Origin: Deltaproteobacteria bacterium
GTDB lineage: Bacteria; Desulfobacterota; JADFXK01
DNA: 45,331 nucleotides
Direction of reading: 5' to 3'
Assembly: GCA_015233625.1 (NCBI GenBank)
Contig: JADFXK010000003.1
Coordinates: 1 to 45,331, forward strand
The position numbers were made by a program, and so were the translations under genes. Position 1 is the stretch's first letter. Each line of letters opens with the position of its first letter. Below the pieces are notes generated by a model. That model had not been told where the DNA came from. It made no database searches and saw only the letters and a list, made by a program, of their open reading frames with translations. Of the stretch, positions 2,329 through 35,039 are shown one piece after another.

Positions 2329-3246
2329 TCAATTCTTTATCTCCCCGCCCATCTTTCGAATAAATTCATCGAGCGAGCCGGCCGTCACCGCGGTTTTGAA
2401 CAGATTAACCAAGATATCCAGATCGCCTATTTCCTCAACCGCAAGTATAATCGAGGACGGCACAGGGCTGAAACGCAGATTAAGGGTCTCAATCAACATC
2501 AGGCGCGATCTCAGCAGCTCTCCCTCCAGCTTTCCCTCCAGCTTTCCCTCGAGCTTTCCCTCTAGTTTTCCCTCAAGCAGGCCTGCCTGTCTGCCCTCGT
2601 TGTATTCAATTTCCCTGATAACCTCGTAGGCTGCAGATTCAAGCATGATATCCCTCCTTCTGTAAATAATCTCTCTGGTCATGTCCTTAGACACCAGGCC
2701 GGCCAGAATGGCCATAATAGTCAGTAAATCAGCTTTGTCTTTTCTTGACAAGGAACTCTGGCCGATTGATTTATCCGCCTGATCCAGGAATTCTTCTCCG
2801 TGGCGCATCAGCGGTAGCAACGGCATCAGACAAAGTATTCCTTCGTGGAAAATCTCCCTGGCATCGAATTCGTAGACAGGAATCAGTCGAAATCGGAACA
2901 GGACGTCCTTATCTTCATATTGATCCGTGACGGTGGCGGACGGCCGAAAAAGCAAGACACACGCCGTAGTCTCCTGATGATATTTTAGCATATATCGACA
3001 TCGATATTCAAGTAGTCTGAGCGGAACATCATTGTCCCAACGGCTCTGGACCTCCAGGATGATTATCTCCTGTTTCCCAGTCTCATCCGTGACTCTGATA
3101 GCGGCATCGGTGTGCCTGGCGCTGACTGTCTCCGTGGCCACTTCCTCCAAAAGATCACTTTCAGCGACAGGGATCCCCACCAACCGCCGGAGAATTGCTT
3201 CCCGGCATTTTTCTATTAGTATCTTTGAACTCTTGTCATAGTACAT
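2329..3246 (-). CDS. Rpn/YhgA-like PD-(D/E)XK nuclease (putative transposase-like) with a DUF4351-like C-terminus
   Basis: Core ...DAAIRV...IIILEVQSRWDNDVPLRLLEYRCRYMLKY... matches the D...E.Q nuclease core of the Rpn family as I remember it. The C-terminal tail after an EG-rich repeat resembles DUF4351. The ATG at 3246 is preceded by GGAG; the longer ORF reaches 3285. Confidence 0.65.
   Translation of the reverse strand: MYYDKSSKILIEKCREAILRRLVGIPVAESDLLEEVATETVSARHTDAAIRVTDETGKQEIIILEVQSRWDNDVPLRLLEYRCRYMLKYHQETTACVLLFRPSATVTDQYEDKDVLFRFRLIPVYEFDAREIFHEGILCLMPLLPLMRHGEEFLDQADKSIGQSSLSRKDKADLLTIMAILAGLVSKDMTREIIYRRRDIMLESAAYEVIREIEYNEGRQAGLLEGKLEGKLEGKLEGKLEGELLRSRLMLIETLNLRFSPVPSSIILAVEEIGDLDILVNLFKTAVTAGSLDEFIRKMGGEIKN
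2521..2580. repeat. Tandem repeat of 5 x 12 bp inside the Rpn-like CDS, encoding (EGKL)n
   Basis: Units are tccctccagctt, tccctccagctt, tccctcgagctt, tccctctagttt and tccctcaagcag. On the coding strand they read LEGKLEGKLEGKLEGKLEGE. Confidence 0.9.
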
Positions 3247-3539
3247 AAGTTTCTCCAGGCATCTGGACGGAAGGCAACTATCCAATGGTACGGGATGAAG
3301 TCCATTTCATAAGATTTAGAAGATCATATGGGCTGTCAGAGTGTCAAGCAAATAGACCCTGCGGGGTCGGCCGGCTTTGAAATATCTTGCCAAATCGGCT
3401 GGATTAGGATAAACTACCTAATACTTAGGATAGCTTTTCCGGATGTTGAGGCCCTTTCCCGGCCCTCGGCGCCGTTCCGGGAGAGTTTCGCCAAGACCGG
3501 GAAGGTAAATTTACTGACAACCTTAATTTCGGGACGGCT

Positions 3540-9070: not shown

Positions 9071-9754
9071 ATGAAGCCTTACGTCCCGCGGCAACTCTCC
9101 CTGCTGAACATTGATTGGGCTAATCACGTGTCGTTGATCGGTGAAGCCAACGCGGCCTTGGCCAGGTATGACGGTCTTCTATCAAGTATCGTCAACCCCG
9201 GCATCCTCCTATCTCCTTTAACGACTCAGGAAGCTGTGCTTTCTTCACGCATTGAGGGGACCCAGGCTACACTCGAAGAAGTCCTTGAATATGAAGCAGA
9301 TCCTACAGAAAAAATCGATCCCGGCAAACAGGCGGACATACAGGAGATTATCAATTATCGTCACGCCATGCGATATGCTGTTGAGCAGTTGAATCACAGA
9401 CCGCTCTGTTTAAACCTTCTACGTGAACTGCACGGGATTTTGTTGGACAGTGTTCGGGGCCGCAACAAGGCCCCGGGTGAGTTCCGTCGCATTCAGAATT
9501 ATATCGGGCCACCGGGTTGTTCCATCGAAGAAGCCACGTTTGTCCCACCGGCTGTTGATCAACTGGCCGCCGGCCTCGACGACTGGGAAAAATACGTCCA
9601 TTTTGACGAAAAAGATCGTCTGGTCCAACTTGCGGTAGTCAAAGCACAATTTGAACTGATTCATCCGTTCCTGGACGGCAACGGTAGGGTGGGGCGGATG
9701 CTCATTCCAATCTTTCTTTTTGAAAAGAAACTTCTTTCCAGTCCGATGTTCTAG
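9071..9754 (+). CDS. Fic-family protein, N-terminal part (Fic_N plus Fic core), ending at an in-frame TAG
   Basis: Canonical Fic motif HPFLDGNGRVGR. The ORF stops at TAG 9752-9754 and the next ORF starts at 9755 in the same frame. Confidence 0.8.
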   Translation: MKPYVPRQLSLLNIDWANHVSLIGEANAALARYDGLLSSIVNPGILLSPLTTQEAVLSSRIEGTQATLEEVLEYEADPTEKIDPGKQADIQEIINYRHAMRYAVEQLNHRPLCLNLLRELHGILLDSVRGRNKAPGEFRRIQNYIGPPGCSIEEATFVPPAVDQLAAGLDDWEKYVHFDEKDRLVQLAVVKAQFELIHPFLDGNGRVGRMLIPIFLFEKKLLSSPMF

Positions 9755-10213: not shown

Positions 10214-10412
10214 AAAATGGGAAAAGTGATCTACAAACTAGTTTATGGTGCATAGATGAGCCACAAAGATGCTCAGATGGACAGATAGTCTGGCCAGTAT
10301 TCTTTGGCCGCAAATGGGGTGGTGGGTCAACTCCCTGCATCCAACCCCGTCATCCTTCGGCCTGTCTTTCGGGCTGGTTCCACCCAAACCCACTTTGTCA
10401 CGGATCTGCACT

Positions 10413-11357
10413 ATGCCTAAAGAAGTAACTCACTGGTTGATTGCCCGACGATTGGCCCAGAAGTTGGATGGAACCGGCTACACCCCGGCATTGCTGCAGA
10501 ACCCCAACTGTCTCATGCTGGGGGCTGTTTTTCATGATGCCTTGTTTTACCTTCCGCCTTATGCTGCCATAGCCGATCATTGGCACGGTATTGACGGTGA
10601 AGATACTTTCGAGATGGTCCGGCGCCTCTCAGTCGCAGTTGATGAACCATCTTCTGACGGACCGTTCCGGGCATTTCTGGTCGGGGTGATTTCCCATATT
10701 TTCGCCGACATCACTTATCATCCCATGATCTTCCACCTGACGGGCCAATATCACGACGCTGACCGGCGAATGCGGTCTCGGGCCGTCCAGGCCCACCGGT
10801 TGTTCGAAACCAGGCTTGATCTCCTATATTGCGGGGGGCTCAAGCAGGTCAAGTCTTTTTCCCTGGGTGCCTATATCAGCGGCGCCGAGCTACCGTTTAA
10901 ATCTCTGATCCGCAAAGTCTGCCGCAAGCTGGCACCGGATGGGTTGGCCTACGCCATGTACTCAGCTTATCAGGTCTTTCGGCTGGCGCAGTTCATCGCT
11001 CAGCGCCAATACCTGGCCTCATGCCTCCATCAAGTGAAGGCCGGGCTACCTGACCTGGCCAGGGAGATCGCCTCGTTGATGTACGCCCCCCAACTGGCCG
11101 CCCCGGCCAATCAGCTTCCAGGCGAACTGGCCTATCGTCATCCAGTAACCGGGCAAGATGCCGTCGGCCACTTAGACGCCCTGCTGGACCTGGCCGCTAC
11201 CAGAGCTGCTGCTTTTTGTTGCCAGATTGAATCAGCCATCGTTTCGGGCCAACCGCTCGATCTCCCGGAGCCGGGACCGTCCATGTTGACGGGCCTGCTC
11301 GGGCGAAAGGTCAGCGAGATGAAATATTTCTCCCACGGCGAATACGCTGTCTTCTAA
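10413..11357 (+). CDS. Hypothetical protein, possibly zinc-dependent phospholipase C-like
   Basis: N-terminal MPKEVTHWLIARR and later ISHIFADITYHP resemble the His-rich pattern of PF00882-type proteins; this is from memory and unverified. Start chosen at the internal ATG; the ORF is open from 10269. Confidence 0.45.
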   Translation: MPKEVTHWLIARRLAQKLDGTGYTPALLQNPNCLMLGAVFHDALFYLPPYAAIADHWHGIDGEDTFEMVRRLSVAVDEPSSDGPFRAFLVGVISHIFADITYHPMIFHLTGQYHDADRRMRSRAVQAHRLFETRLDLLYCGGLKQVKSFSLGAYISGAELPFKSLIRKVCRKLAPDGLAYAMYSAYQVFRLAQFIAQRQYLASCLHQVKAGLPDLAREIASLMYAPQLAAPANQLPGELAYRHPVTGQDAVGHLDALLDLAATRAAAFCCQIESAIVSGQPLDLPEPGPSMLTGLLGRKVSEMKYFSHGEYAVF

Positions 11358-12187: not shown

Positions 12188-12916
12188 TTATAGATCTATT
12201 AATGTGGCATGGACTTCAGAACTGATGCAGCGCTTGCCGGACTCTGACTTATGGGTATAGAATAACCTGGGCATCTGCCCTTGTGCGCCTAACAAATGAG
12301 ATAGAATAGAACATGCCAGCGTAGAATGGCGGGGTGGCACAATTCCAGCCCCCGCTTGCTTTATGTATGGCAGGGCTGCCTCTGCCATAGATTCTGCGAT
12401 CTTAGCCAGAGACGATGGATCATCAAGATCTGGACACGCAAAACCCACAAATTCACTATGGTCGAGAACGAGAATTCCTCTGACTTCGAATTCATTGTGC
12501 CCTGCCATATTGTAAACGCGCGGTATGTTTTTGCCGTCACCAAGATGATCCACAAGTCTATGTAATGCCAACCAATCCTTGGCTTTCTCTTTCATCTCTA
12601 AGCAATGAATCATATTGAGATAGGGTGGGATCACTATATCTTCAAGTACTATCGGGATGATATGGCGTTTGGCGGCAATAGCCATATCTATCTCGTCTTT
12701 GACCCAATCTGATTCAAGCGCTGCGGTTGTCAAAAGCACTAAGAAATAATCATAATCACTCAGCGCTTTTGAAAGTTCCTTTGGAAAGCGAGAACCTAAC
12801 TGAAGGCTGTGGTCATCTTTCCATACTTCATAGCCTGCACCCGTCAAACTGGTATACAGAAATTCCGCCACATCACTGGCGTCCTTGTGAGGATAAGATA
12901 TAAATACTCGGTTCAT
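12188..12916 (-). CDS. TIR-domain protein with an unassigned C-terminal module (paralogue 1)
   Basis: MNRVFISYPHKD..., YFLVLLT and SDWVKDEIDMA (Glu at the TIR catalytic position). AGGAGG lies 5 nt before the ATG. The C-terminal ~120 aa is conserved with paralogue 2. Confidence 0.8.
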   Translation of the reverse strand: MNRVFISYPHKDASDVAEFLYTSLTGAGYEVWKDDHSLQLGSRFPKELSKALSDYDYFLVLLTTAALESDWVKDEIDMAIAAKRHIIPIVLEDIVIPPYLNMIHCLEMKEKAKDWLALHRLVDHLGDGKNIPRVYNMAGHNEFEVRGILVLDHSEFVGFACPDLDDPSSLAKIAESMAEAALPYIKQAGAGIVPPRHSTLACSILSHLLGAQGQMPRLFYTHKSESGKRCISSEVHATLIDL

Positions 12917-13489: not shown

Positions 13490-14248
13490 TTACTTTGGGT
13501 TTTGGCTCCGATACTCAAATCCGGCATCGCGCATATCTTGTAATGCGACATATACTTCAGAATTGATGCAGAAATTGTCTGGTCCTGGCTTGTGAGTGTA
13601 GAATAACCTGGGCATCTGACCTCGTGTGCCGAGCAAATGAGCTAGAATGGAACATGCTAATGCTGAATGTCCAGGTGGTACGATTCCAGCCCCTGCCCGC
13701 TCTATGTATGGTAGGGCTTTCTCTGCCATTGATTCTGCGATGTTAGCCATAGAAGATGGATCTTTTAGATCTGCAAGCACAAATTCACTATGGCCGAGAA
13801 TAAGAATTCCTTTGACTTCGAAATCCTTACGCCCCGACATGTTATAAACGCGCGGTATGTTTTTGCCGTCACCAAGATCATTCACAAGTTTATGTAATGC
13901 CTCCCAATCGTTAGTTCTTTCCTTCATCATTAAGCAGTGTCTCTTCTTGAGGTAGAGAGGGATCTCGATATCTTCGAGCACTATCGGGATTATGTTAAGC
14001 TCGGCTACAATAGCCATATCTATTTCATCTCTAACCCAATTTGATTCAAGCGCGGCAGTTGTCAAAAGCACTAAGAAATAATTGTGATCACCGAGTGCTT
14101 TTGAGAGTTCTGTTGGAAAGCTGGAACCTAAAGTAAGGCTGTGGTCATCTTTGAATACAGCGTAGCCGGCACCCATCAACCGGGTATACAGAAACTCCGC
14201 CACATCACTGGCATCCTTGTGGGAATACGACAGAAATACTCTGTTCAT
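13490..14248 (-). CDS. TIR-domain protein with an unassigned C-terminal module (paralogue 2)
   Basis: MNRVFLSYSHKD... and SNWVRDEIDMA. GGAGG precedes the ATG at 14248, which is homologous to the start of paralogue 1; the ORF is open to 14287. It has a 13-aa longer C-terminal tail. Confidence 0.8.
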   Translation of the reverse strand: MNRVFLSYSHKDASDVAEFLYTRLMGAGYAVFKDDHSLTLGSSFPTELSKALGDHNYFLVLLTTAALESNWVRDEIDMAIVAELNIIPIVLEDIEIPLYLKKRHCLMMKERTNDWEALHKLVNDLGDGKNIPRVYNMSGRKDFEVKGILILGHSEFVLADLKDPSSMANIAESMAEKALPYIERAGAGIVPPGHSALACSILAHLLGTRGQMPRLFYTHKPGPDNFCINSEVYVALQDMRDAGFEYRSQNPK

Positions 14249-14317
14249 AATGGCCTCCAAAAATCTGTCAAGTAACGGCAAATACACAAAGAGAAAGTCT
14301 CACTCTCAACTATATGT

Positions 14318-16100: not shown

Positions 16101-17921
16101 ATGGCCAGGATAAATCCAGAAAATATCTATTTGCTGCCCATCCTCCACGGTCGGATGGAATTTGCCGTGGAAGTGGCCAGGGTGTTCAAATCTTACCGGC
16201 CGCAGGCTGTGGCTGTGGAATTTCCGCCCACTATCCAGGCCCAGGTGATGGCCGGAGTGGCCCGGATGCCCCATCTATCAGTTATCCTCTATCCTGACGA
16301 GGGAGGCCACGTGTTTCTATTTTTGGAGCCCACCGATGGTCAGGTGGAGGCCCTGCGACTGGCCCTGGAACACCAGGTCCCCGTGACCTTTATGGATCGT
16401 GACACCCCCGGATATCCCCGGTACCAGGAAGCGCTACCCGATTCCTACGCCATAACCCGCATCGGCCACGAGGCCTACTGCCGGGCCTATGTGGAGCATG
16501 CCGGCTCAGGTCCGCGTGATCAGGCCGATCAACTCCGGGAAGCGGCCATGGCCTACCACCTCCAGGCCTTGTCTCAAAAGTATGACCGGGTCCTGGGCGT
16601 GCTCGGCTTGTACCATTATCCGGAAGTGACCCGGCTGCTCCAGCAACCTCAGGCCCAGCCATTGGGCCGACGCAAGCGGGAAGGGGTTACCTTAGCCAAT
16701 CTGAATGCCGAATCCAGCCGGGAAATCATGTCCGAGATTCCTTTTTTGGCCGCCGGCTACGAGGCCATGAGACGGGACATCGGGATATCCCCAGATGAGG
16801 CCGATCCGGACCGGCTGGTCCTGCAAGGAGAGTTGCTGAACCAGGCCCGGGAGCGCTATGCCCATAATTATAAGGAAAGAATCACCATCCCTCAACTGGC
16901 CGCTTTGAGACAGTTCGCCCGGAACTATGCCATCATCCAGGGCCAATTGACCCCGGACTTCTACCAGCACGTCATTGCCGCCAGAGGAGGGGCCGACGAT
17001 AATTTTTCGTATGAAGTGTGTGACCTGGGTTCCACCTATCCTTATCAAGACAAAGATTCCGCCCTGCCGGAAGTGACTCTCAGAGGCGAGGATTTATATC
17101 TTAATCAGAAGAAAATTCGGTTTCATCGCCGCATCAAGACCCTGCGGCGGCGGCTGGTTCCGGTGCCGGTCAAGCAGCGGCCGCGGGAAAAGACGCCGGG
17201 CGAATGGAAGAAAAATTTCAATCCCGATGCTATCTGCTCTTATCCGCCGGAGGACCTGGTTATCGAGGGGTATGGCGGATTCCTTAAGAAGAAGTCGCTG
17301 AAGATCCTGTCTGAAAAGAACTTTCGGGTGAGTCCTTTCAGCACCTCTTTGCACGACGGGATTGACGTCCGGGAGACGATTCGGAACTGGGCTCAAGGGA
17401 ACATCTACGTCAGGGAATATCTGCCGATTAAGGGTCGGGTGGGTTCGGTGGTGGTCATCTTTGACGAAGATTCAACCGAGTCGGGTCAGGAAAAATACCC
17501 CTGGTGCCTGACCTGGTTGGGGGAAAACAGCCAGGAATCGGATATGGCCTTTTATGCCACTCCGGCTGGCGAGCAAATGGTTGGTCCGGGCCTCTCGCTC
17601 TGCCATTACGGCGGTTTCATGCTGACCTACCCGCCCCTGCGGGTCTATGATATCTGGAGAGACCCTTTTTTCAATCCGGCCCGGTCCAAGCCGGAGAGGC
17701 TCTTGCTGGCCGCCATTGACTATTCTGAGGAAAATCATGTTCTCTACGTGGCCGCCAAACCGCCCCGTTCCTGGTGCCACAATGTGGCCAACCGGGTGGG
17801 AAAAAAAATCATCTACCTGCCCATCGGGCAACTCTCCCCGGTGATCCTAAAAAAGATCCGGACCTTTCATGTCCTGGCCGGCCATCATGTCCGAGGCTAC
17901 GCCAAGAATTATATTTGGTGA
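16101..17921 (+). CDS. Conserved hypothetical protein (606 aa), N-terminus TraB/DUF5682-like
   Basis: Long clean ORF with an SD. The N-terminal pattern (YLLPILHG...YRPQAVAVEFP...ALEHQVPVTFMDRD) resembles TraB/ChaN/DUF5682-type proteins from memory only. Confidence 0.55.
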   Translation: MARINPENIYLLPILHGRMEFAVEVARVFKSYRPQAVAVEFPPTIQAQVMAGVARMPHLSVILYPDEGGHVFLFLEPTDGQVEALRLALEHQVPVTFMDRDTPGYPRYQEALPDSYAITRIGHEAYCRAYVEHAGSGPRDQADQLREAAMAYHLQALSQKYDRVLGVLGLYHYPEVTRLLQQPQAQPLGRRKREGVTLANLNAESSREIMSEIPFLAAGYEAMRRDIGISPDEADPDRLVLQGELLNQARERYAHNYKERITIPQLAALRQFARNYAIIQGQLTPDFYQHVIAARGGADDNFSYEVCDLGSTYPYQDKDSALPEVTLRGEDLYLNQKKIRFHRRIKTLRRRLVPVPVKQRPREKTPGEWKKNFNPDAICSYPPEDLVIEGYGGFLKKKSLKILSEKNFRVSPFSTSLHDGIDVRETIRNWAQGNIYVREYLPIKGRVGSVVVIFDEDSTESGQEKYPWCLTWLGENSQESDMAFYATPAGEQMVGPGLSLCHYGGFMLTYPPLRVYDIWRDPFFNPARSKPERLLLAAIDYSEENHVLYVAAKPPRSWCHNVANRVGKKIIYLPIGQLSPVILKKIRTFHVLAGHHVRGYAKNYIW

Positions 17922-18838: not shown

Positions 18839-19150
18839 CAGAACGCTCCAGAAGAGGTAAAAGCTTAATGGTGCTTCAGTCGACTGAATGATAAACCGTC
18901 AGGCGGTTTTATTCAAATTAATTCGTAAACCCTGGGGATTTTACCTGGCGTTATCTGCCCATCCCCCTATCTCATGGGAAATTATCCCCACAAATTAGGG
19001 GCTATCCCTATTTACAAAGGACTCAAGAGCAGTTAGGATAGGAGCTTCTTCTGAAGATTGGGGAAATGACTCACCGGGTGCATTTTTTCAGGCTCGGCCG
19101 ACAAGTAAACCGAAGGGGTAGGGTGCGGTCAGCACGGAAAGGAGAATAGC

Positions 19151-19723
19151 ATGTTTCAGATCACGTGGATCACTTCATTTGAGGAGGGCCTGGTCAAGGC
19201 CGCCGCCGACGATAAGTTGGCGTTTGTGGATTTTTTCAACCCCAATTGAATCGGCTGCCAACAAATGGACGCGGTCGCGTACCCAGAATCGGCGGTCATC
19301 GGGTTCATCAATAATAACCTTATTCCCATAAGAATTCCGTCCGACCACCCCACCCTCGGCCCCAAATACCACATCAAATGGACTCCTTCCCTGCTTATAA
19401 CGGACTCTGGAGGCATGGAGCATTCCCGCACCTTGGGATTCTTTTCGCCTCAAGAGTTGATTCCGTCTCTGCTGTTGGGGATGGGCAAGGCTTATTTCAA
19501 TCAGCCGGACCGACCCCGGGCAACCGCCTGCTTCGAACGGATTATCGCGGAATTTCCTACAAGTTTCCCGGTCCCTGAGGCCATCTATCTGATCGGAGTG
19601 TCCCGCTATATTCAGACCCACGACGTGGCCAATCTGATCGGCATCTATGACCGGCTGACGGCGGAACACCCCAACAGTCAGTGGGCTATGCGGGCTGATC
19701 CCTACCGGCTGTTGAAAAAATGA
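19151..19723 (+). CDS. Thioredoxin-fold protein, candidate selenoprotein (in-frame TGA at 19247-19249 in a U-I-G-C motif)
   Basis: An ATG at 19151 with GGAG 6 nt upstream opens a frame reading MFQITWITSFEEGLVKAAADDKLAFVDFFNPN-TGA-IGCQQMDAV..., continuous with the tracked ORF at 19265-19723. The TGA sits where the first Cys of a thioredoxin CxxC would be. A cis-Pro-like WTPS lies downstream. A hairpin with a GGUC loop lies 22-34 nt after the TGA. Confidence 0.6.
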
Positions 19724-19735
19724 GATGACAGGGTA

Positions 19736-19783
19736 GCGGGTTATTCGTGGCTGGTTCTTGCTAGCCTGCAACGAATAACCCGC
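19736..19783 (+). terminator. Perfect 13-bp-stem hairpin just after the thioredoxin-fold gene
   Basis: GCGGGTTATTCGT (19736-19748) pairs with ACGAATAACCCGC (19771-19783) across a 22-nt loop that has its own GGCT/AGCC sub-stem. There is no T-tract. Confidence 0.4.
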
Positions 19784-20067
19784 AGCCCAACGGATTGTAG
19801 AGTAAAGTGGGTGACCACCTCCCGCAGTTCCGATCAGGCCAACCCGGACGTAAAATTTTGGAGCCTGGCCATCCGGTTCTTCCATCCTTTTAAGAATACG
19901 ACCAGGCTAGGTCTCCTTGGGACCAGTCTTTCCTAAAAGCCTTCCCTGGCTTCGAGATACCCGGCCAACACTTCACCAGTTCGGTCTTCCAACTTCCATT
20001 CCGCAGCCCAGGTTATAGATAATCGACAATTTTTCTCCGGCGTTCCGGCTGAGGCCATCATCAGATC

Positions 20068-20368: not shown

Positions 20369-20848
20369 ATGAGAGCATTTAGACTGGTAGTCTTCTTTTT
20401 GGCTGTTTCTTTGACGGTAGGTCACTTTATCCCGGTCGAGTGTTCGGCCCTTGAATATTGCTGGAACCTTACTTACCCTGGAACGACCGCTCCTCCCGAC
20501 ACAATAAGGGTCGGGGTGCTCGATATTGGCGGCGGTCATTATCTTCTGTCCGGCTCGGGAAAGGAGCATCGTGATTTTCCGCCCTATGCATATACAACCT
20601 ATGCGGTGATTGGCGGGGCTGAGCTGATCGATAAACTTCTCAACGTGACCATCGTTATGTCCAGTCGGTCGGACCAGGCCGTTCTGCCGGGAGGGACTAG
20701 TGCAATGTTCACCCAACGCATCCACATGCGGTTGGATCCTACTACCTTAAGCGGAGACTACGCCAGGATACTGGATCATTCCAACGGGTCTGTACAGCTA
20801 AAAGGCAGTTTCCTGAATGGGACAGTCACCTCGGTATCCTGTAACTAA
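20369..20848 (+). CDS. Secreted hypothetical protein (159 aa)
   Basis: SD AAGGAG upstream. Signal-peptide-like MRAFRLVVFFLAVSLTVG. No family recognised. Confidence 0.5.
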   Translation: MRAFRLVVFFLAVSLTVGHFIPVECSALEYCWNLTYPGTTAPPDTIRVGVLDIGGGHYLLSGSGKEHRDFPPYAYTTYAVIGGAELIDKLLNVTIVMSSRSDQAVLPGGTSAMFTQRIHMRLDPTTLSGDYARILDHSNGSVQLKGSFLNGTVTSVSCN

Positions 20849-21110: not shown

Positions 21111-24100
21111 TTAGCTACCTGGTCCCAATTCAGTCAGTCTTTCCCTGGCATATTTGGCCCAGCGACCGGGATAGTGATCAATGATGCGCTGGAAGTAAAC
21201 CTTAGCCCCCGGTTTATCTCCTCTTTGCGCGGCGCACAGGCCGAGGTGATAGATGGCTTCCGGGGTCCAGGGCCCGGCCGGGTCTTGCCGCATTAATTGT
21301 TCGAAGATGGCCGCGGCCGCGGCCCAATCGGCCGCTTTGAACAGGCTGGCCGCCTGGAAGTACCTGGCGTTGGCCCCCTCCGGACGACCATGGTAACTAT
21401 CGGCCAGTTGCTGGAACATGCGTCCCGCTTCTCCATACTTTCCCTGGTCAAACAAGCCCATGGCCAGGTTATAGTCGGCCCTGGTCCCATCCCCCTCATC
21501 AAGCCGCCGTTGGGCTTCACCCGCCCAGGTAGATCGGCTAAAATCCTTGATAATCAACCGATAAGCCGCCTTGGCCCGGTCTTTGTCCTTCAGCCGATCA
21601 TAACAGGCAGCCAGATGATAGAGAATTTCGGGATACAGGTTGCTCTCAGGATAACCGGCTAAAAATTTAGAGAATATTTCCGCGGCCTGGGTCCAGTTTT
21701 GGCGGTTGTAATAGCACAAGCCATAATGAAAAGCCGTCTGGTCGATAATGGGCGAGTAGGGAAACATGTCCATGCCTTTTTTGAATATCTCGGCGGCCGC
21801 GGCATAGTCCGGGATCTTATATTTGGCCTGGCCCTCATTATAGACGATGGTGGCATCTAAGTGATGGATTCTGATAATAATGATCGTCAGACCGAGGGTC
21901 AGCACCAGCCCCGTGACCACCAACACCCGGCGGCCGTGTCGCCCAAACCAGCCGGTCATCCCTGGGAACAATCGAGGGACCAGCCCCTCCAAAGTCGGGA
22001 GATGCAGTCCGGCCAGGCGCCTGGTCACCGGAAGCGTATAAGCCACCAGCCACATCAGGCCCAAGATGGTCAATACGGCACCCAGTTTATTCGGCCAGGT
22101 CGAGCCATAATAAAGCGTGACGTGCTCGGCCGTGGGGTAAATGATCATGAGCGACGGCGAGGCCGGATAGACCCGGTCCGCCCCGATGACCTGCCAGTTA
22201 GGGTGATAGGATATCTTGATCAATAAAGGATGCCCCACCTGGTTCGTGGTGATATCCACCCGCTCCCTGGTCACCCGTTCGGTGACTTTAACCGGCTCAG
22301 CCAGGGGGATACGAGGCAGGTCGGCGATGTTATTGTCGCTTCGGATGGTCGGGAACCGGATGTCATCACCTGGGTCCTGCCGCGGCTGGAACACCACCGG
22401 GACCTCCAAATCTCCCATCCGGAACCACTGGAAGGCCGTCTTTTTCCAGTCCTGGGTGATCATCAAGACCGGCTGAAATTTCACCGGGGTGACATAGTGG
22501 CCATCGTTTCCTTTCACCTTATAGATTTCATAGTCGCCGAATTTCTTCTCAAATTCCAGGTCTGGATGGACCCGGGCCGCCGCCTTGGTTTCTTTTTCCG
22601 CAACAATATACCGGCTGACGTTAAACAGTCGCAGGTGTTTTATGCCTTTATCCAAATTGAATCGGGAATAATTATAATCGGGCAGAGGGGCAGAGGTGAC
22701 TTTGGACACCTCGGATTGGATGTAAAAGGCAAAAGGTGACGAAATGGTCGACTGCATATACAGCCCCTCCAGGGTCGACCGCCCCGAAAACAAGGGTAAT
22801 GATTCAAAGGCCCGGGTGGTCCCGGCCTTATTATGGATGTCAGAGTGTTCGTAGACCACCCTGGGGTCGGCCTCGGTCCCTTTCAGGTATTCGTTGACCG
22901 CCTTGAAGGCCGGCCAGGCGGGCGTTTTCTCGAACCCCTGGTAATTCCACTTGATCCAGCCAGGAATGAAGTTGTCCATCCGGCCTAATCCCAAGACCAC
23001 GACGAGAAAGACGACCAGGGGTAAGATCCAGGTGGCCTTAAGCCTGGAAATCAGGGCAGCCAGGCCCAGGGCGCCGATCAGGCATATCGCCGTCTGCCCA
23101 AAGGGAATGAAGCGAATATCGACCACATTGATGCGGTAGGCGATGAAGTAAAACACCGTGGCTGCAATTAGAATGAATACAAGAAATATAAGGCGGTCAA
23201 GATCAGCCCGAAGACTTGTCCGGTCTGCTCCTGGCCAGAGATTGCGGAGCGCGGTTAATCCGGCGCCCAGCGCCCCGAGAATAGCCGCCGGCCACAGGAT
23301 GGGCGGGACCACTTGCCGGAACGTGTCAATGATCCACACATAATTATACCTGGTGGTGTAGGGGATGAAGACCTGCAGCGGGACTATCCAAAAACCCATC
23401 AGGAAAAAGGCCAGGGTGCCGACCTTTAGCAGGTAGGCCAGCCGATGCCACCAGAGGTGAGTGGTAAACAGAAAAAAGGAAGAAACGATAACTGCAAAAA
23501 CCAGGGTGTACCCGTGACTGAATCCGGTCAGGGCCAGGATGACCCCGCAGGTCCCCACGCCGCGCCGGGTATCGATGGACCCGTACAGATATCCAAAATA
23601 AAGGATCATCAGAGACAACCCGATGCCGTAAGCAAATTCGCCGGCCAAGGTGCTGGGGATGTTGCCACCCCACATGGAATTGTCCTGCATGAACAGAAAA
23701 GGCAAGGTCAAGATGGCCGCGAAAATGGGGCCGGGAAAGGGAGCGCCCATTTTCCGGAGTCCCGCGTAGGCGCAAATCGGTAATGACATGATTCCGGCGA
23801 TACTGATCAACTTAAATGATATAGTCAAAGGAATAACATAGGCCAAAACAGCCATCAAGACGAAGGGCAGGGGGAAATAGAATTGAAAGAAAGGGTAGCC
23901 GGCGTAATTGCCGGGACACCAGCCGGTGATTCGGCCCAGAGGCAGAAGTTTATCCTTTAGAAATTTGGCTGTGTAGAAGTGGGAACCGGTGTCGCCGCCG
24001 GTGGTGATGGTCCTGGAGAAAAGATAGTGCGGCTCAAAAAAACTGAGCAGGAAGACCCAGATCAAAACCAAAATCAAGGCATCGATCAGCAGTTCCCGGT

Positions 24101-24167
24101 TTTGGGCTAACCAGTCCGGTCCCGCGTGGCCAAATTTTTCAGATATTGCTTTGTCCATAGGTGGCAT
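21111..24167 (-). CDS. Large polytopic membrane protein (GT-C/YfhO-like fold suspected) with a C-terminal TPR domain
   Basis: 1018 aa. The N-terminal ~400 aa contains many hydrophobic helices, followed by a soluble middle region, two more TM segments and a TPR-like tail (repeats of A..Y..G.CY....W..A...F). Confidence 0.75.
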   Translation of the reverse strand: MPPMDKAISEKFGHAGPDWLAQNRELLIDALILVLIWVFLLSFFEPHYLFSRTITTGGDTGSHFYTAKFLKDKLLPLGRITGWCPGNYAGYPFFQFYFPLPFVLMAVLAYVIPLTISFKLISIAGIMSLPICAYAGLRKMGAPFPGPIFAAILTLPFLFMQDNSMWGGNIPSTLAGEFAYGIGLSLMILYFGYLYGSIDTRRGVGTCGVILALTGFSHGYTLVFAVIVSSFFLFTTHLWWHRLAYLLKVGTLAFFLMGFWIVPLQVFIPYTTRYNYVWIIDTFRQVVPPILWPAAILGALGAGLTALRNLWPGADRTSLRADLDRLIFLVFILIAATVFYFIAYRINVVDIRFIPFGQTAICLIGALGLAALISRLKATWILPLVVFLVVVLGLGRMDNFIPGWIKWNYQGFEKTPAWPAFKAVNEYLKGTEADPRVVYEHSDIHNKAGTTRAFESLPLFSGRSTLEGLYMQSTISSPFAFYIQSEVSKVTSAPLPDYNYSRFNLDKGIKHLRLFNVSRYIVAEKETKAAARVHPDLEFEKKFGDYEIYKVKGNDGHYVTPVKFQPVLMITQDWKKTAFQWFRMGDLEVPVVFQPRQDPGDDIRFPTIRSDNNIADLPRIPLAEPVKVTERVTRERVDITTNQVGHPLLIKISYHPNWQVIGADRVYPASPSLMIIYPTAEHVTLYYGSTWPNKLGAVLTILGLMWLVAYTLPVTRRLAGLHLPTLEGLVPRLFPGMTGWFGRHGRRVLVVTGLVLTLGLTIIIIRIHHLDATIVYNEGQAKYKIPDYAAAAEIFKKGMDMFPYSPIIDQTAFHYGLCYYNRQNWTQAAEIFSKFLAGYPESNLYPEILYHLAACYDRLKDKDRAKAAYRLIIKDFSRSTWAGEAQRRLDEGDGTRADYNLAMGLFDQGKYGEAGRMFQQLADSYHGRPEGANARYFQAASLFKAADWAAAAAIFEQLMRQDPAGPWTPEAIYHLGLCAAQRGDKPGAKVYFQRIIDHYPGRWAKYARERLTELGPGS

Positions 24168-31460: not shown

Positions 31461-32099
31461 GCTTGGGCATGTTGTCTTGTCTATCATTTCTTCAACAAAT
31501 GATAACGCGGCCAAAGGAGCGTCACGGGATGCTTTCGACTATCTTCTCAACATTTTGCTTAAATCCGGATGAATCCCGGCCTTCGCTGCGTTCTCTCTAC
31601 GTTTACTCCGCGTCTTCAGGTGTTATATTGTTCGAACATTCTTTTTCCGTTCTTCGTGCCGGACCGGCGAGTTCGCCGTCACCCCAGAGGCCAGAACACT
31701 AAACACCCGGCCATAGCCCTGGCAGCCGTCACCCGGCCGCGGGGCCGCACCGCCGAAGGGGGCCATCAGCTCCCTGCCGCAACAGGCGATTGGTCATATT
31801 GCGCCGCTACTTCTTGTAAAAAAATCTATATTATCATGAATAGAAAGGGCTTGTCTCCGGTCCTGACGGTTCGGATCGGTGGTCGTCCTGAGCTTTTTGT
31901 TTGTCTCTTCAAATGGTCTGACCGGCTGAGAGCAAGAGGATTTTTGTTGCTTATTTCGGCGTCGCCTCTTGATTCCGTCTCTTCTCCCAGATCTGGGTCG
32001 AGGCCGTTCTTATTTCGTTAGTATTTATAATATTTGTCATTATCTCCCGATCTCGAGCGAATTTTGACACTTTCCTTCAGCGATTCGAGGAATGGAAGT

Positions 32100-33431
32100 A
32101 TGGACTCCGCAAATCTGTGGCAAAAGGTGAAAGAAAATATTGAGGCTGATCTCTCTCCTCAAAGTTTTTCCCTTTGGATTAAACCAATTGAAGTAATCAA
32201 CTCCTCTGCATCGGACATCACCTTTGCCTGCCCCAATAAGTTTTTCGTCAAGTGGGTCCAGGAAAACTACCTCCGGCTAATTCAGGAGAGAATGCGCGCT
32301 TTGCATTCCTGGGAACCCAAAATCAATTTCAAGGTGGTGACCCCCCGGGAGGACAAAAAACTTGATCCTTCGCAAACTCAATTGATTCTTCCAGAATTTC
32401 CCTTAAACGCGCCCCGTCAAAAGCGGCTTAACCCAAATTTCACTTTTGATCAATTTGTCACCGGTGACGGCAACAGCTTTGCCTATTCCGCGGCCATGGC
32501 CATGGCCCTGGGCCAAAACGTACATAATAATTTTTTATACATGAAGTCGAACACCGGCCTGGGCAAGAGTCACCTGTCCCATGCGGTGGGGAATCTGGTC
32601 TCAGATAAGAAATCGTCGTGTCGGGTGATTTACATCACGGCCGAAGATTTTACCAATGAAATGATTATCTCCATCAAACGGAGTTCCATCGACGCCTTCA
32701 AAGAAAAATATCGGAAGAATTGCGACATCTTGGTCATGGAGGACATCCATTTTTTGAGTGGGAAAGAAAAAACTCAAATGGAACTAGGCTACACCCTGGA
32801 CGCCCTGATTGAAAATGAAAAAAAGGTAATCTTTACTGGATCGCTAAAACCAAATGATATTCCGGACCTTCGGGGAAAACTCCGGTCACGCATTTGCTCC
32901 TCCCTGGTCACTTCCATTGAGCCTCCGGACCTGACCACCCGGCGCCGGATCCTGGACAAAAAAACCGCCCACACCGGCGTGCGGGTGCCCGATGATGTCC
33001 TCGACTTCCTGGCCACCAAAATTACTCAGGATATCCGTCAATTGGAAAGCAGCCTGAAGAGCCTCATTGCCAGGTCGTCCTTGCTGGATCGTCCCATTAC
33101 CCTCGACATGGCCGTGGAGATCACCGAAGGGCTGACCGATCAACGCCGGGATGTCACGTTGGAGATTATTCAACAGCTCGTTTTGGATTATTACCAGATC
33201 AACCTGGATGATCTACTGTCTAAGTCCCGGAAAAAGAACATTGCCTTACCTCGAAGTGTTTGCTTTTATCTGTGCCGTAAATTGACCAACCAGTCACTGG
33301 AACACATCGGCCGGGCTTTTCAACGCAACCATACCACCGTGCTCTACGCCATTAACAAAATCCAGGAACAAAAAAAGAAGAACCAACAACTGGCCAGAGA
33401 AATCGATTTTCTGGAGAAGAAACTTGATTAG
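32100..33431 (+). CDS. dnaA: Chromosomal replication initiator DnaA
   Basis: Domain I (LWQKVKENIEADLSPQSFSLWIKPI), Walker A GLGKSHL, Walker B ILVMEDIH and domain IV RNHTTVLYAINKI. The ATG at 32100 has GAGGAA upstream; the ORF is open from 32034. Confidence 0.93.
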   Translation: MDSANLWQKVKENIEADLSPQSFSLWIKPIEVINSSASDITFACPNKFFVKWVQENYLRLIQERMRALHSWEPKINFKVVTPREDKKLDPSQTQLILPEFPLNAPRQKRLNPNFTFDQFVTGDGNSFAYSAAMAMALGQNVHNNFLYMKSNTGLGKSHLSHAVGNLVSDKKSSCRVIYITAEDFTNEMIISIKRSSIDAFKEKYRKNCDILVMEDIHFLSGKEKTQMELGYTLDALIENEKKVIFTGSLKPNDIPDLRGKLRSRICSSLVTSIEPPDLTTRRRILDKKTAHTGVRVPDDVLDFLATKITQDIRQLESSLKSLIARSSLLDRPITLDMAVEITEGLTDQRRDVTLEIIQQLVLDYYQINLDDLLSKSRKKNIALPRSVCFYLCRKLTNQSLEHIGRAFQRNHTTVLYAINKIQEQKKKNQQLAREIDFLEKKLD

Positions 33432-34436: not shown

Positions 34437-35039
34437 ATGGCTCACATCATACCATTTAAGGGTAAATCCGACCCGCTGGATAATGTCATATGTTCCAAAC
34501 CCATCCGTTTGAGGTGGGGCGAGTGGAAAGGGGGGCGGATAATGCAATGCACTAATTATGAGGCGGAAAAGTTCGAACAGCACCGCCGGGAAGTGTACCA
34601 GGCCGGGCATGGGAGCCATGTATCCTTTGTCCCGACTCATTTTCCGCTATCCATCGGCGAATCGCAAACCCTCTTGGGCTTGTACCAGGTTCGGGATCGG
34701 GAAGAGGACCTGGACCAGGTCTATTACCTGGCCGGGTTAATGGAGTGCCTGCTGAACTATCACCAGCCGGTTCTCCGGACGGATTTAATCCGGAAATTCT
34801 ATGATGAGATCAACATCCTCAAGTCCCGGCTGGGGGTCCACTGGCGTGGCAATTCAGACCATTTTCTCTTGCCACTGGCGTCCATGCACTACGACGCTTC
34901 CGTGTTCATCGTCGAAGTGGAACGTGCGACAAGCATGAAGGAGTTGCTGGCGGTGATCAAAGAGGGAACGGCCGAGCAATTGACTTTGCTCAAGAATGAA
35001 TACGTCTTTTACCTGCCCAAAGATCAATCTTTGGCTTGA
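34437..35039 (+). CDS. Hypothetical protein (200 aa)
   Basis: Clean ORF with normal composition between yggS and fumC. No family recognised. Confidence 0.5.
   Translation: MAHIIPFKGKSDPLDNVICSKPIRLRWGEWKGGRIMQCTNYEAEKFEQHRREVYQAGHGSHVSFVPTHFPLSIGESQTLLGLYQVRDREEDLDQVYYLAGLMECLLNYHQPVLRTDLIRKFYDEINILKSRLGVHWRGNSDHFLLPLASMHYDASVFIVEVERATSMKELLAVIKEGTAEQLTLLKNEYVFYLPKDQSLA

Follow-up and report, generated by a model that had tools for sequence, protein, structure and literature searches.

A TGA-interrupted gene for a thioredoxin-fold protein

The window analysed here is a 45,331-nucleotide stretch of DNA from a deltaproteobacterium (contig JADFXK010000003.1, positions 1 to 45,331). On its forward strand, a reading frame at 19151-19723 was found to be open except for one internal TGA at 19247-19249, and this TGA is almost certainly a genuine selenocysteine (Sec) codon. 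Read through the TGA, the frame encodes a 190-residue protein that we assign, with a probability of roughly 0.93, to the published 'thiol:disulfide interchange protein' family of selenoproteins as a new, unannotated member. The features of the gene are given below, where SECIS denotes a selenocysteine insertion sequence and TPR a tetratricopeptide repeat.

19141..19144, + strand: Shine-Dalgarno sequence GGAG, 6 nt 5' of ATG 19151, which from the sequence is the predicted true start codon
19151..19723, + strand: full selenoprotein coding sequence, 190 codons including one Sec codon, with the terminal TGA stop at 19721-19723
19247..19249, + strand: in-frame TGA, the Sec codon (U33), in a conserved column that holds Cys in full-length homologues
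19247..19258, + strand: U-I-G-C redox motif (U33-I-G-C36), occupying the thioredoxin CxxC position
19267..19283, + strand: predicted SECIS hairpin GGACGC[GGUC]GCGU(A)CC, apical loop 19273-19276, with G19274 and U19275 invariant
19151..19465, + strand: thioredoxin-fold domain, about residues 1-105, with the cis-Pro motif KWTP at 19376-19387
19460..19720, + strand: all-helical TPR-like C-terminal domain, about residues 104-190 (TPR_6, E = 1.2e-5)

With the asterisk standing for TGA 19247-19249, the conceptual protein reads MFQITWITSFEEGLVKAAADDKLAFVDFFNPN*IGCQQMDAVAYPES..., and the residues around the TGA are ...LAFVDFFNPN-U-IGC-QQMDAVAY.... The mechanically called open reading frame (ORF) begins at ATG 19265, which corresponds to M39, and no Shine-Dalgarno-like sequence lies 5' of this ATG. 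An earlier, tool-less reading of the raw DNA, hereafter the sequence-only reading, had placed the start at ATG 19151 with GGAG 6 nt upstream and had noted that the ORF 19265-19723 is without a ribosome-binding site; the sequence agrees with it on both points. TGA is also the terminal stop of the selenoprotein gene and of several neighbouring genes, indicating that the genetic code is standard. When the window was scanned for other TGA-interrupted frames, a coding context together with a redox motif was found only at 19247.

Membership of a published selenoprotein family

In Zhang et al. 2006 (Genome Biol 7:R94, PMC1794560), the entry '#Thiol:disulfide interchange protein' of supplement 4 contains three sequences, those of G. 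metallireducens, G. uraniumreducens and S. aciditrophicus, which share the motif DFFNP[GN]UIGCK.MDAV; the G. metallireducens entry reads ...DFFNPGUIGCKQMDAVAY.... According to Table 3 of that paper, the family occurs in exactly these three genomes and not in G. sulfurreducens, and Geobacter and Syntrophus are documented Sec users whose SelA and SelB sequences are given in supplement 3 (PMC1794560). Reviews of 2022 and 2026 (PMC9312934, PMC13188914) credit the family to Kryukov & Gladyshev 2004 and name WP_011366075.1 (PF13098, UxxC) as its example. Selenoproteins are unmentioned in the G. metallireducens genome paper.

The window protein aligns with the G. metallireducens selenoprotein over 190/190 residues without gaps (64% identity, 81% positives, E = 1e-98), and U33 falls in the same column as the U of the three published sequences. 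The published sequences are thus the same protein, so that the family is known and the window gene is a new, unannotated member of it. Length (190 residues), the FFNPxUIGCxxMDAV motif, the Sec column and the C-terminal helical domain are all shared with the family, as are the host groups (Geobacter, Syntrophus and relatives), whereas the deltaproteobacterial lineage is different, the nearest relatives of the window protein being found in nDJH metagenome-assembled genomes (MAGs) at 85-89% identity. Compared to the G. metallireducens member, the window protein has N rather than G before U and QQ rather than KQ after C, and nothing differs in kind. No NCBIfam model represents the family: with the NCBIfam selenoprotein models (e.g. 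NF041383, NF041199 and NF045694), the best thioredoxin-type matches reached 10-22 bits against cut-offs of 275-805.

Conservation of the in-frame TGA

A protein search was performed with U replaced by C in the query, and the best 120 matches were taken. Each of them is 151-154 residues long, covers 79-80% of the query and starts at the equivalent of M39, a residue that is invariant among them. These annotations are in line with the TGA being a true stop, in which case the gene would encode a 152-residue 'tetratricopeptide repeat protein' from M39 (19265), preceded by 32 codons that either specify a leader peptide or do not code; indeed, a separate upstream ORF of 32-33 residues is called by some pipelines. 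However, uniform starts at M39 are also the expected product of gene callers if the whole family carries an in-frame stop, and ATG 19265 has no ribosome-binding site before it. The 152-residue product would moreover start inside the first helix after the active site and would be devoid of strand 1, helix 1 and the redox motif. Further arguing against a true stop, in-frame conservation of the upstream part as protein extends across phyla, the Cys homologues are continuous and full length (both described below), and the nucleotide-level conservation of M39 and its neighbours is explained by their being part of the hairpin. Termination at this TGA is therefore extremely unlikely.

At the DNA level, 40 loci were taken from a species-representative genome collection and translated through the stop. 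TGA was present at exactly the same column in 39/40 loci, and in the 40th, L037 from a Syntrophaceae MAG, the Sec column holds Cys (...IMNPPCPSCQQMDKV...). Seven further loci, all with FFNP[GR]-TGA-IGC[QK]QM, comprise one from a G. metallireducens-type assembly (L041), which has kept the TGA, and six from other phyla that were reached via their shortened homologues starting at the M39 equivalent. The TGA is kept in 6/6 of the latter, which belong to Candidatus Brocadia, a Planctomycetia MAG, Nitrospirota, Dissulfuribacterales, Tectomicrobia and Desulfobacterales, bringing to 46 (39 + L041 + 6) the Sec-type loci inspected, all of which retain it. A pseudogene or a sequencing error, in which a Cys codon TGC or TGT was mutated or misread to TGA, would need only a one-base change, but 46 independent loci, drawn from numerous assemblies and phyla, share this TGA and have intact frames on both sides of it, which in effect refutes this explanation.

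The flanks of the TGA are conserved on both sides, with M-x-I-x-W-I-T-S-F-x-x-G-L...K-L-x-F-x-D-F-F-N-P-[NG] 5' and I-G-C-[KQ]-[QR]-M-D-A-V 3' of it, and the I, G and C of U-I-G-C are invariant in 40/40 sequences. Over the 32 codons upstream of the TGA, residues are conserved while third positions are free (entropy up to 1.95 bits), suggesting selection at the protein level. Thus, although gene callers start the homologues at M39, they do not biologically begin there, and the DNA upstream is conserved in frame through the conserved TGA; the sequence-only reading had named homologues that start at M39 and lack the N-terminal CxxC segment as evidence that would count against it.

A search seeded with the Cys form uncovered full-length Cys homologues of 189-197 residues with CPSC or CIGC at the Sec column, giving Sec/Cys pairs with CPSC in L037 and P0135-P0145 and with CIGC in P0148 and P0193. 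The sequence-only reading had asked whether homologues extend N-terminally and align Cys or Sec at this column; these Cys homologues run full length with C aligned at the U column. An exhaustive search of 50%-identity cluster representatives was also carried out; among the best 150 considered, 49 begin at the M39 equivalent and 29 are full length. A strict CxxC-x-x-[MIL] pattern fits 12/29 full-length representatives, and several others are visibly C-x-x-C with a different next residue.

Two homologues among the database proteins, P0147 and P0341, have Trp at the Sec column (WIGCQQM). The change from TGA to TGG involves one base, and the two proteins could be real variants, inactive copies or assembly errors.

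The Trp (TGG) in P0147 and P0341 (...GWIGCQQM...), together with the absence of Sec machinery from the 45 kb window, would favour a reading of the TGA other than Sec, namely Trp, Cys or Gly inserted through near-cognate decoding, suppression or a variant code. On the other hand, TGA terminates the selenoprotein gene and its neighbours as in the standard code, and the position is that of the nucleophile of a CxxC-type redox centre and is Cys in homologues, which is the signature of Sec. In addition, a conserved SECIS-type hairpin follows only the TGA forms among those examined, and the named hosts are known Sec users (PMC1794560). Non-Sec decoding is thus very unlikely, and the comparative evidence for recoding of the TGA far exceeds chance.

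A predicted SECIS hairpin 3' of the TGA

The hairpin GGACGC[GGUC]GCGU(A)CC at 19267-19283, which the sequence-only reading had drawn, was reproduced as the minimum free energy (MFE) structure of the local segment, with -6.6 kcal/mol. It is made up of a 4-nt loop GGUC, 4 bp, a bulged A and 2 bp, and begins 17 nt downstream of the UGA. The earlier estimate that the loop G and U lie ~27-29 nt from the U of UGA also stands, since they are nt 28 and 29 with this U counted as 1, and the spacer from the UGA to the apical loop, 23 nt (19250-19272), is inside the 16-37 nt that the same reading had quoted for bacterial models.

As the bacterial SECIS consensus, we used the model of Zhang & Gladyshev 2005 as restated in PMC13188914: an upper stem of 4-16 bp capped by an apical loop of 3-9 nt, a G at loop position 1 or 2 with G or U as the usual next base, a spacing of 16-37 nt and an MFE of <= -7.5 kcal/mol. 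The hairpin agrees with the model in loop size, stem length, loop G and spacing (23 nt). As to energy, the 17-nt hairpin alone has -6.6 kcal/mol, and the limit of the model is passed only with a lower stem (-15.2 kcal/mol) that is not kept in all members.

Stronger evidence came from the comparison of sequences. Synonymous variability was determined in the 40 Sec-type sequences for 46 four-fold degenerate codons with a conserved amino acid, whose entropies are typically 1.5-1.9 bits. Codons +10, +8 and +9 after the TGA showed the three lowest values of the 46 (0.00, 0.54 and 0.67 bits, respectively), and codons +8 to +10 are GCG-GUC-GCG, the hairpin core; the chance of three named codons occupying ranks 1-3 of 46 is 1 in 15,180. 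The loop G and U are invariant in both subfamilies into which the sequences fall (33/33 and 11/11 sequences). In the window's subfamily, pairing counted in a fixed register is 90%, and an Asp-to-Asn change (GAC to AAC) is always coupled with a Tyr-to-Phe change (UAC to UUC), converting the bulged stem, in a shifted register, to a perfect 6-bp stem, GAACGC[GGUC]GCGUUC, with -8.0 kcal/mol. The coupled change may be a single evolutionary event.

The second subfamily, comprising G. uraniireducens-like sequences, Brocadia, Nitrospirota and others, carries at the same columns a re-registered hairpin, GGAU[G/A]C [A/G]GU[U/C][A/U]C GUAUCC, with a 6-bp stem and a hexaloop, so that about half of the family uses a hexaloop in a shifted register. 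This hairpin was recovered by RNAalifold unaided, with 98.5% of cells paired compared to 21-62% with slid partners, and it includes one compensatory pair, A-U to G-C, in two sequences. Its 6-nt loop on a 6-bp stem is within the consensus model, and the loop A-G-U-U-A-C fits the loop-G rule. A hairpin can form at the shared columns in every family member (-5.5 to -13.1 kcal/mol), while none forms in L037 (-1.0 kcal/mol), the only Cys-form locus for which DNA was analysed.

The hairpin of the sequence-only reading is thereby backed beyond one sequence, by synonymous constraint, two subfamilies, an invariant loop G and U, one compensatory pair and its absence in L037. Taken together, the sequence comparisons support the prediction that the hairpin at 19267-19283 is the SECIS for the UGA at 19247.

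The sequence-only reading had matched the loop GGUC to that of the SECIS of E. coli fdhF. The E. coli sequence TGACACGGCCCATCGGTTGCAGGTCTGCACC..., which was found in fdhF in 5419/5426 genomes, contains GGUUGCA[GGUC]UGCACC 3' of the UGA, showing that the match is right. SelB contacts the loop G and U in the fdhF SECIS, and these two bases are the two invariant loop bases of the window's family. Both elements are small hairpins within the coding sequence just 3' of the Sec-UGA, with a GGUC tetraloop, a short stem and one bulged base. They differ in that the stem sequences are unrelated, the bulged base is a 3'-side A in the window but a 5'-side U in fdhF, and the loop G and U, counted from the U of UGA, are at nt 28-29 in the window and at nt 23-24 in fdhF.

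Lower stem and competing helix

Two further pairings were found around the hairpin.

19253..19297, + strand: possible lower SECIS stem, GGCUGC (19253-19258) with GCGGUC (19292-19297), enclosing the hairpin; not robust across species
19252..19277, + strand: alternative helix, CGGCUGC (19252-19258, the I-G-C codons) with GCGGUCG (19271-19277), excluding the hairpin

The lower stem forms in the MFE structure of a 71-nt segment (-22.3 kcal/mol), with a z-score of only -1.09. Because 82% of its cells are paired over 33 sequences and it shows no covariation, we do not claim it as a conserved part of the SECIS.

The alternative helix competes with the hairpin, and RNAalifold preferred it (columns 12-18 with 31-37) to the hairpin in the mixed 33-sequence alignment. 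In the second subfamily it is 87% paired and mostly unstable. We rejected it as the SECIS itself because it breaks the rules for loop size, loop G and spacing, leaves the invariant G19279 and the coupled D/N-Y/F change unaccounted for, and is weak in the second subfamily. The helix would account for the lowered synonymous variability of codons +2 and +3. A speculative possibility for the window's subfamily is that it acts as a switch that is melted by the ribosome and exposes the SECIS only as the UGA nears the A site.

Several observations weigh against the reading of the locus as a selenoprotein gene with its own SECIS. The energy of the hairpin is by itself not significant (z = -0.88; 37/200 shuffles fold as well), and as the z-score of the 71-nt context (-1.09) is equally unremarkable, the window sequence alone cannot decide. 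Strict two-sided covariation is sparse, being confined in the second subfamily to the one pair in two sequences; in the window's subfamily none was seen in fixed register, and column-shuffle covariation tests gave no signal there. The latter is attributable to the hairpin being almost invariant in this subfamily, where synonymous-site entropy is informative instead. In the window's subfamily, pairing in the competing helix amounts to 97%, and its conservation there equals that of the hairpin. No Rfam match was found in the window at the gathering score, nor any SECIS-type match at 19150-19400 with E <= 10, the only Rfam match being a chance one to the DUF2815 small RNA on the opposite strand. 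No selA, selB, selD, tRNA-Sec or any tRNA lies within the 45 kb window, and Sec decoding in this organism is therefore inferred from relatives only. At the family level, the reviews of 2022 and 2026 grade the family as 'predicted with high confidence', selenium having been experimentally shown in no member, and the redox function and the role of the TPR-like tail discussed below are likewise inferred.

Predicted fold and function

In Pfam searches, residues 4-104 gave only sub-threshold matches to Thioredox_DsbH, Thioredoxin_2 and Thioredoxin_7, and residues 104-181 matched TPR_6 (E = 1.2e-5) and, more weakly, YfiO/YbgF-like families. For PF13098 (Thioredoxin_2), the window protein scored 24.1 bits against a 27-bit cut-off, and many homologues carry precomputed PF13098 matches. 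Among solved structures, the best sequence match is to 2kuc, a putative disulphide isomerase (E = 3.5e-9), whose WCGPC aligns with N-U-I-G-C such that U33 is at the first Cys. P79 of KWTP aligns with the cis-Pro of the thioredoxin chimera 1m7t (IPT) and of 2kuc (YPT). The placement of the TGA at the first Cys of a thioredoxin CxxC, as well as the cis-Pro region said by the sequence-only reading to follow it, is thus borne out by the alignments, in which U matches the first Cys of WCGPC in 2kuc and in a thioredoxin, and KWTP (residues 76-79) matches the thioredoxin cis-Pro.

An AlphaFold2 model was built for the Cys homologue P0139, not for the window protein, from a 38-sequence alignment. It displays a thioredoxin fold followed by five to six helices (102-189), with a predicted local distance difference test (pLDDT) of 93.8 and a predicted template modelling score (pTM) of 0.90. 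Foldseek ranked E. coli YbbN/CnoX first for this model, followed by DsbD-gamma (26-29% identity), Thioredox_DsbH proteins and thioredoxins. The window protein has neither a signal peptide nor a hydrophobic N-terminus in its sequence, suggesting that it is probably cytoplasmic.

By analogy with the established bacterial mechanism, SelB.GTP.Sec-tRNA(Sec) would bind the hairpin as the ribosome arrives at the UGA. Judging from fold and motif, the protein would be a thiol-disulfide oxidoreductase cycling through a U33-C36 selenenylsulfide, and its TPR-like domain would probably recruit a protein partner or substrate.

Comparison with related thioredoxin-fold proteins

The DsbD gamma, DsbH and Thioredoxin_7 folds (2fwe, 1uc7, 2ju5 and 2kuc) resemble the P0139 model with a template modelling score (TM) of about 0.7 and 26-29% identity, and share the placement of the redox motif and the cis-Pro. 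This likeness to DsbD-type thioredoxin folds presumably accounts for the published family name. However, the window protein is not an orthologue of DsbD, as it is without a signal peptide or membrane domain, has Sec for the first Cys and carries an added TPR-like domain.

Like the chaperedoxin YbbN/CnoX (3qou, 3qdn), which is the top Foldseek match (E = 1.7e-8), the protein has an N-terminal thioredoxin fold followed by TPR-type helices. In contrast, it has 190 rather than 284 residues, superposition of the whole chains is poor (TM 0.43, 13% identity), and E. coli CnoX carries SxxC and lacks oxidoreductase activity. A speculative and rather doubtful possibility is that the family is a selenium-dependent, minimal CnoX/YbbN-like 'chaperedoxin', in which a cytoplasmic U-x-x-C thioredoxin fold with a TPR client-binding module guards or repairs partners under oxidative or metal stress in anaerobes, the Sec form being dominant, probably ancestral, and spread over at least four phyla. 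If true, such a Sec-dominant, probably ancestral state would be unusual for a selenoprotein family.

The Sec-containing thioredoxin (PF00085; GSU3446 of G. sulfurreducens) also has UxxC in a thioredoxin fold and occurs in the same organism groups. It is nevertheless a different family: the window protein matches PF00085 only with E = 0.01, the PF00085 family is without the TPR tail, and G. sulfurreducens has this thioredoxin but is not listed for the thiol:disulfide interchange family.

Annotation and distribution of the family

The TGA call of the sequence-only reading is correct, but it is not a discovery, the family having been published in 2004-2006 from Geobacter and Syntrophus. What it does show is that a bacterial selenoprotein gene and its SECIS were recognised correctly from the raw sequence without tools. 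Knowledge of selenocysteine biology is unchanged by these results.

The analysis also reveals a systematic annotation error. All 120 closest homologues are stored as 151-154-residue 'tetratricopeptide repeat' or 'hypothetical' proteins with the active site missing, among them the RefSeq WP_ record of Geobacter sp. SVR, and no NCBIfam model exists that annotation pipelines could use to correct the shortened entries. Furthermore, the range of the family is widened from three deltaproteobacterial genomes in 2006 to anammox Planctomycetota, Nitrospirota, Tectomicrobia and others. New, though modest, are the two SECIS hairpin variants predicted at one position and the confident two-domain fold of thioredoxin and TPR-like parts.

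Genomic context and other features of the window

Two further elements flank the selenoprotein gene.

19011..19039, + strand: sigma-70-like promoter match TTTACA-17-TAGGAT, 9/12 matches; weak evidence
19731..19788, + strand: 24-nt imperfect inverted repeat directly 3' of the stop codon; terminator-like stem, no T-run

The number of sigma-70-like sites in the region is not above that in shuffles. The inverted repeat is 83% complementary with a 10-nt spacer, and could be terminator-like or a repeat element.

No conserved operon partner of the family was found in the window or at loci L041-L050. The neighbours in the window are an FGE-sulfatase-like gene on the opposite strand and a gene for a PTPS-related/TPR membrane protein. 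The latter (21111-24167, - strand, 1018 residues), downstream of the selenoprotein gene, combines a PTPS-related membrane domain with an extended TPR/YfiO-like region at its C-terminus, and the TPR_6 repeats of that region are of the same Pfam type as the selenoprotein tail. Elsewhere, at L041-L050, the neighbours are varied and many are redox or antioxidant genes, including those for cytochrome P460 (in three lineages), DUF4079, AhpC-TSA, CMD, OsmC, DsrE, pirin, rubrerythrin, and glutaredoxin with ferredoxin-thioredoxin reductase (FeThRed_B subunit). On G. metallireducens-type contigs, rpiB-gnd-zwf-pgl of the oxidative pentose-phosphate pathway lie directly 3' of the family gene. In the Desulfobacterales MAG (L050), an upstream AhpC-TSA gene (2070-2578) was called as overlapping ORFs of 107 and 84 residues, and this split could reflect a frameshift or another interrupted redox gene.

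Other features of the window lie further from the selenoprotein gene. Two adjacent TIR_2-domain proteins are encoded at 12188-12916 and 13490-14287 (both - strand), and near this pair lie genes for a Fic/DOC protein and a zinc-phospholipase-C-like protein at 9071-9754 and 10269-11357 (both + strand); the cluster may represent a defence island or a toxin island. At 32034-33431 (+ strand) lies a gene for a member of the DnaA family in which the N-terminal, ATPase and C-terminal helix-turn-helix domains are all present, and a chromosomal origin may be near. Five sizeable ORFs have no Pfam match at E <= 1e-5, namely 16101-17921 (+), 2329-3285 (-), 20369-20848 (+), 31569-32021 (+) and 34437-35039 (+). 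The first of these encodes 606 residues; it precedes the selenoprotein gene by about 1.2 kb, and the FGE-sulfatase gene occupies the space between the two.

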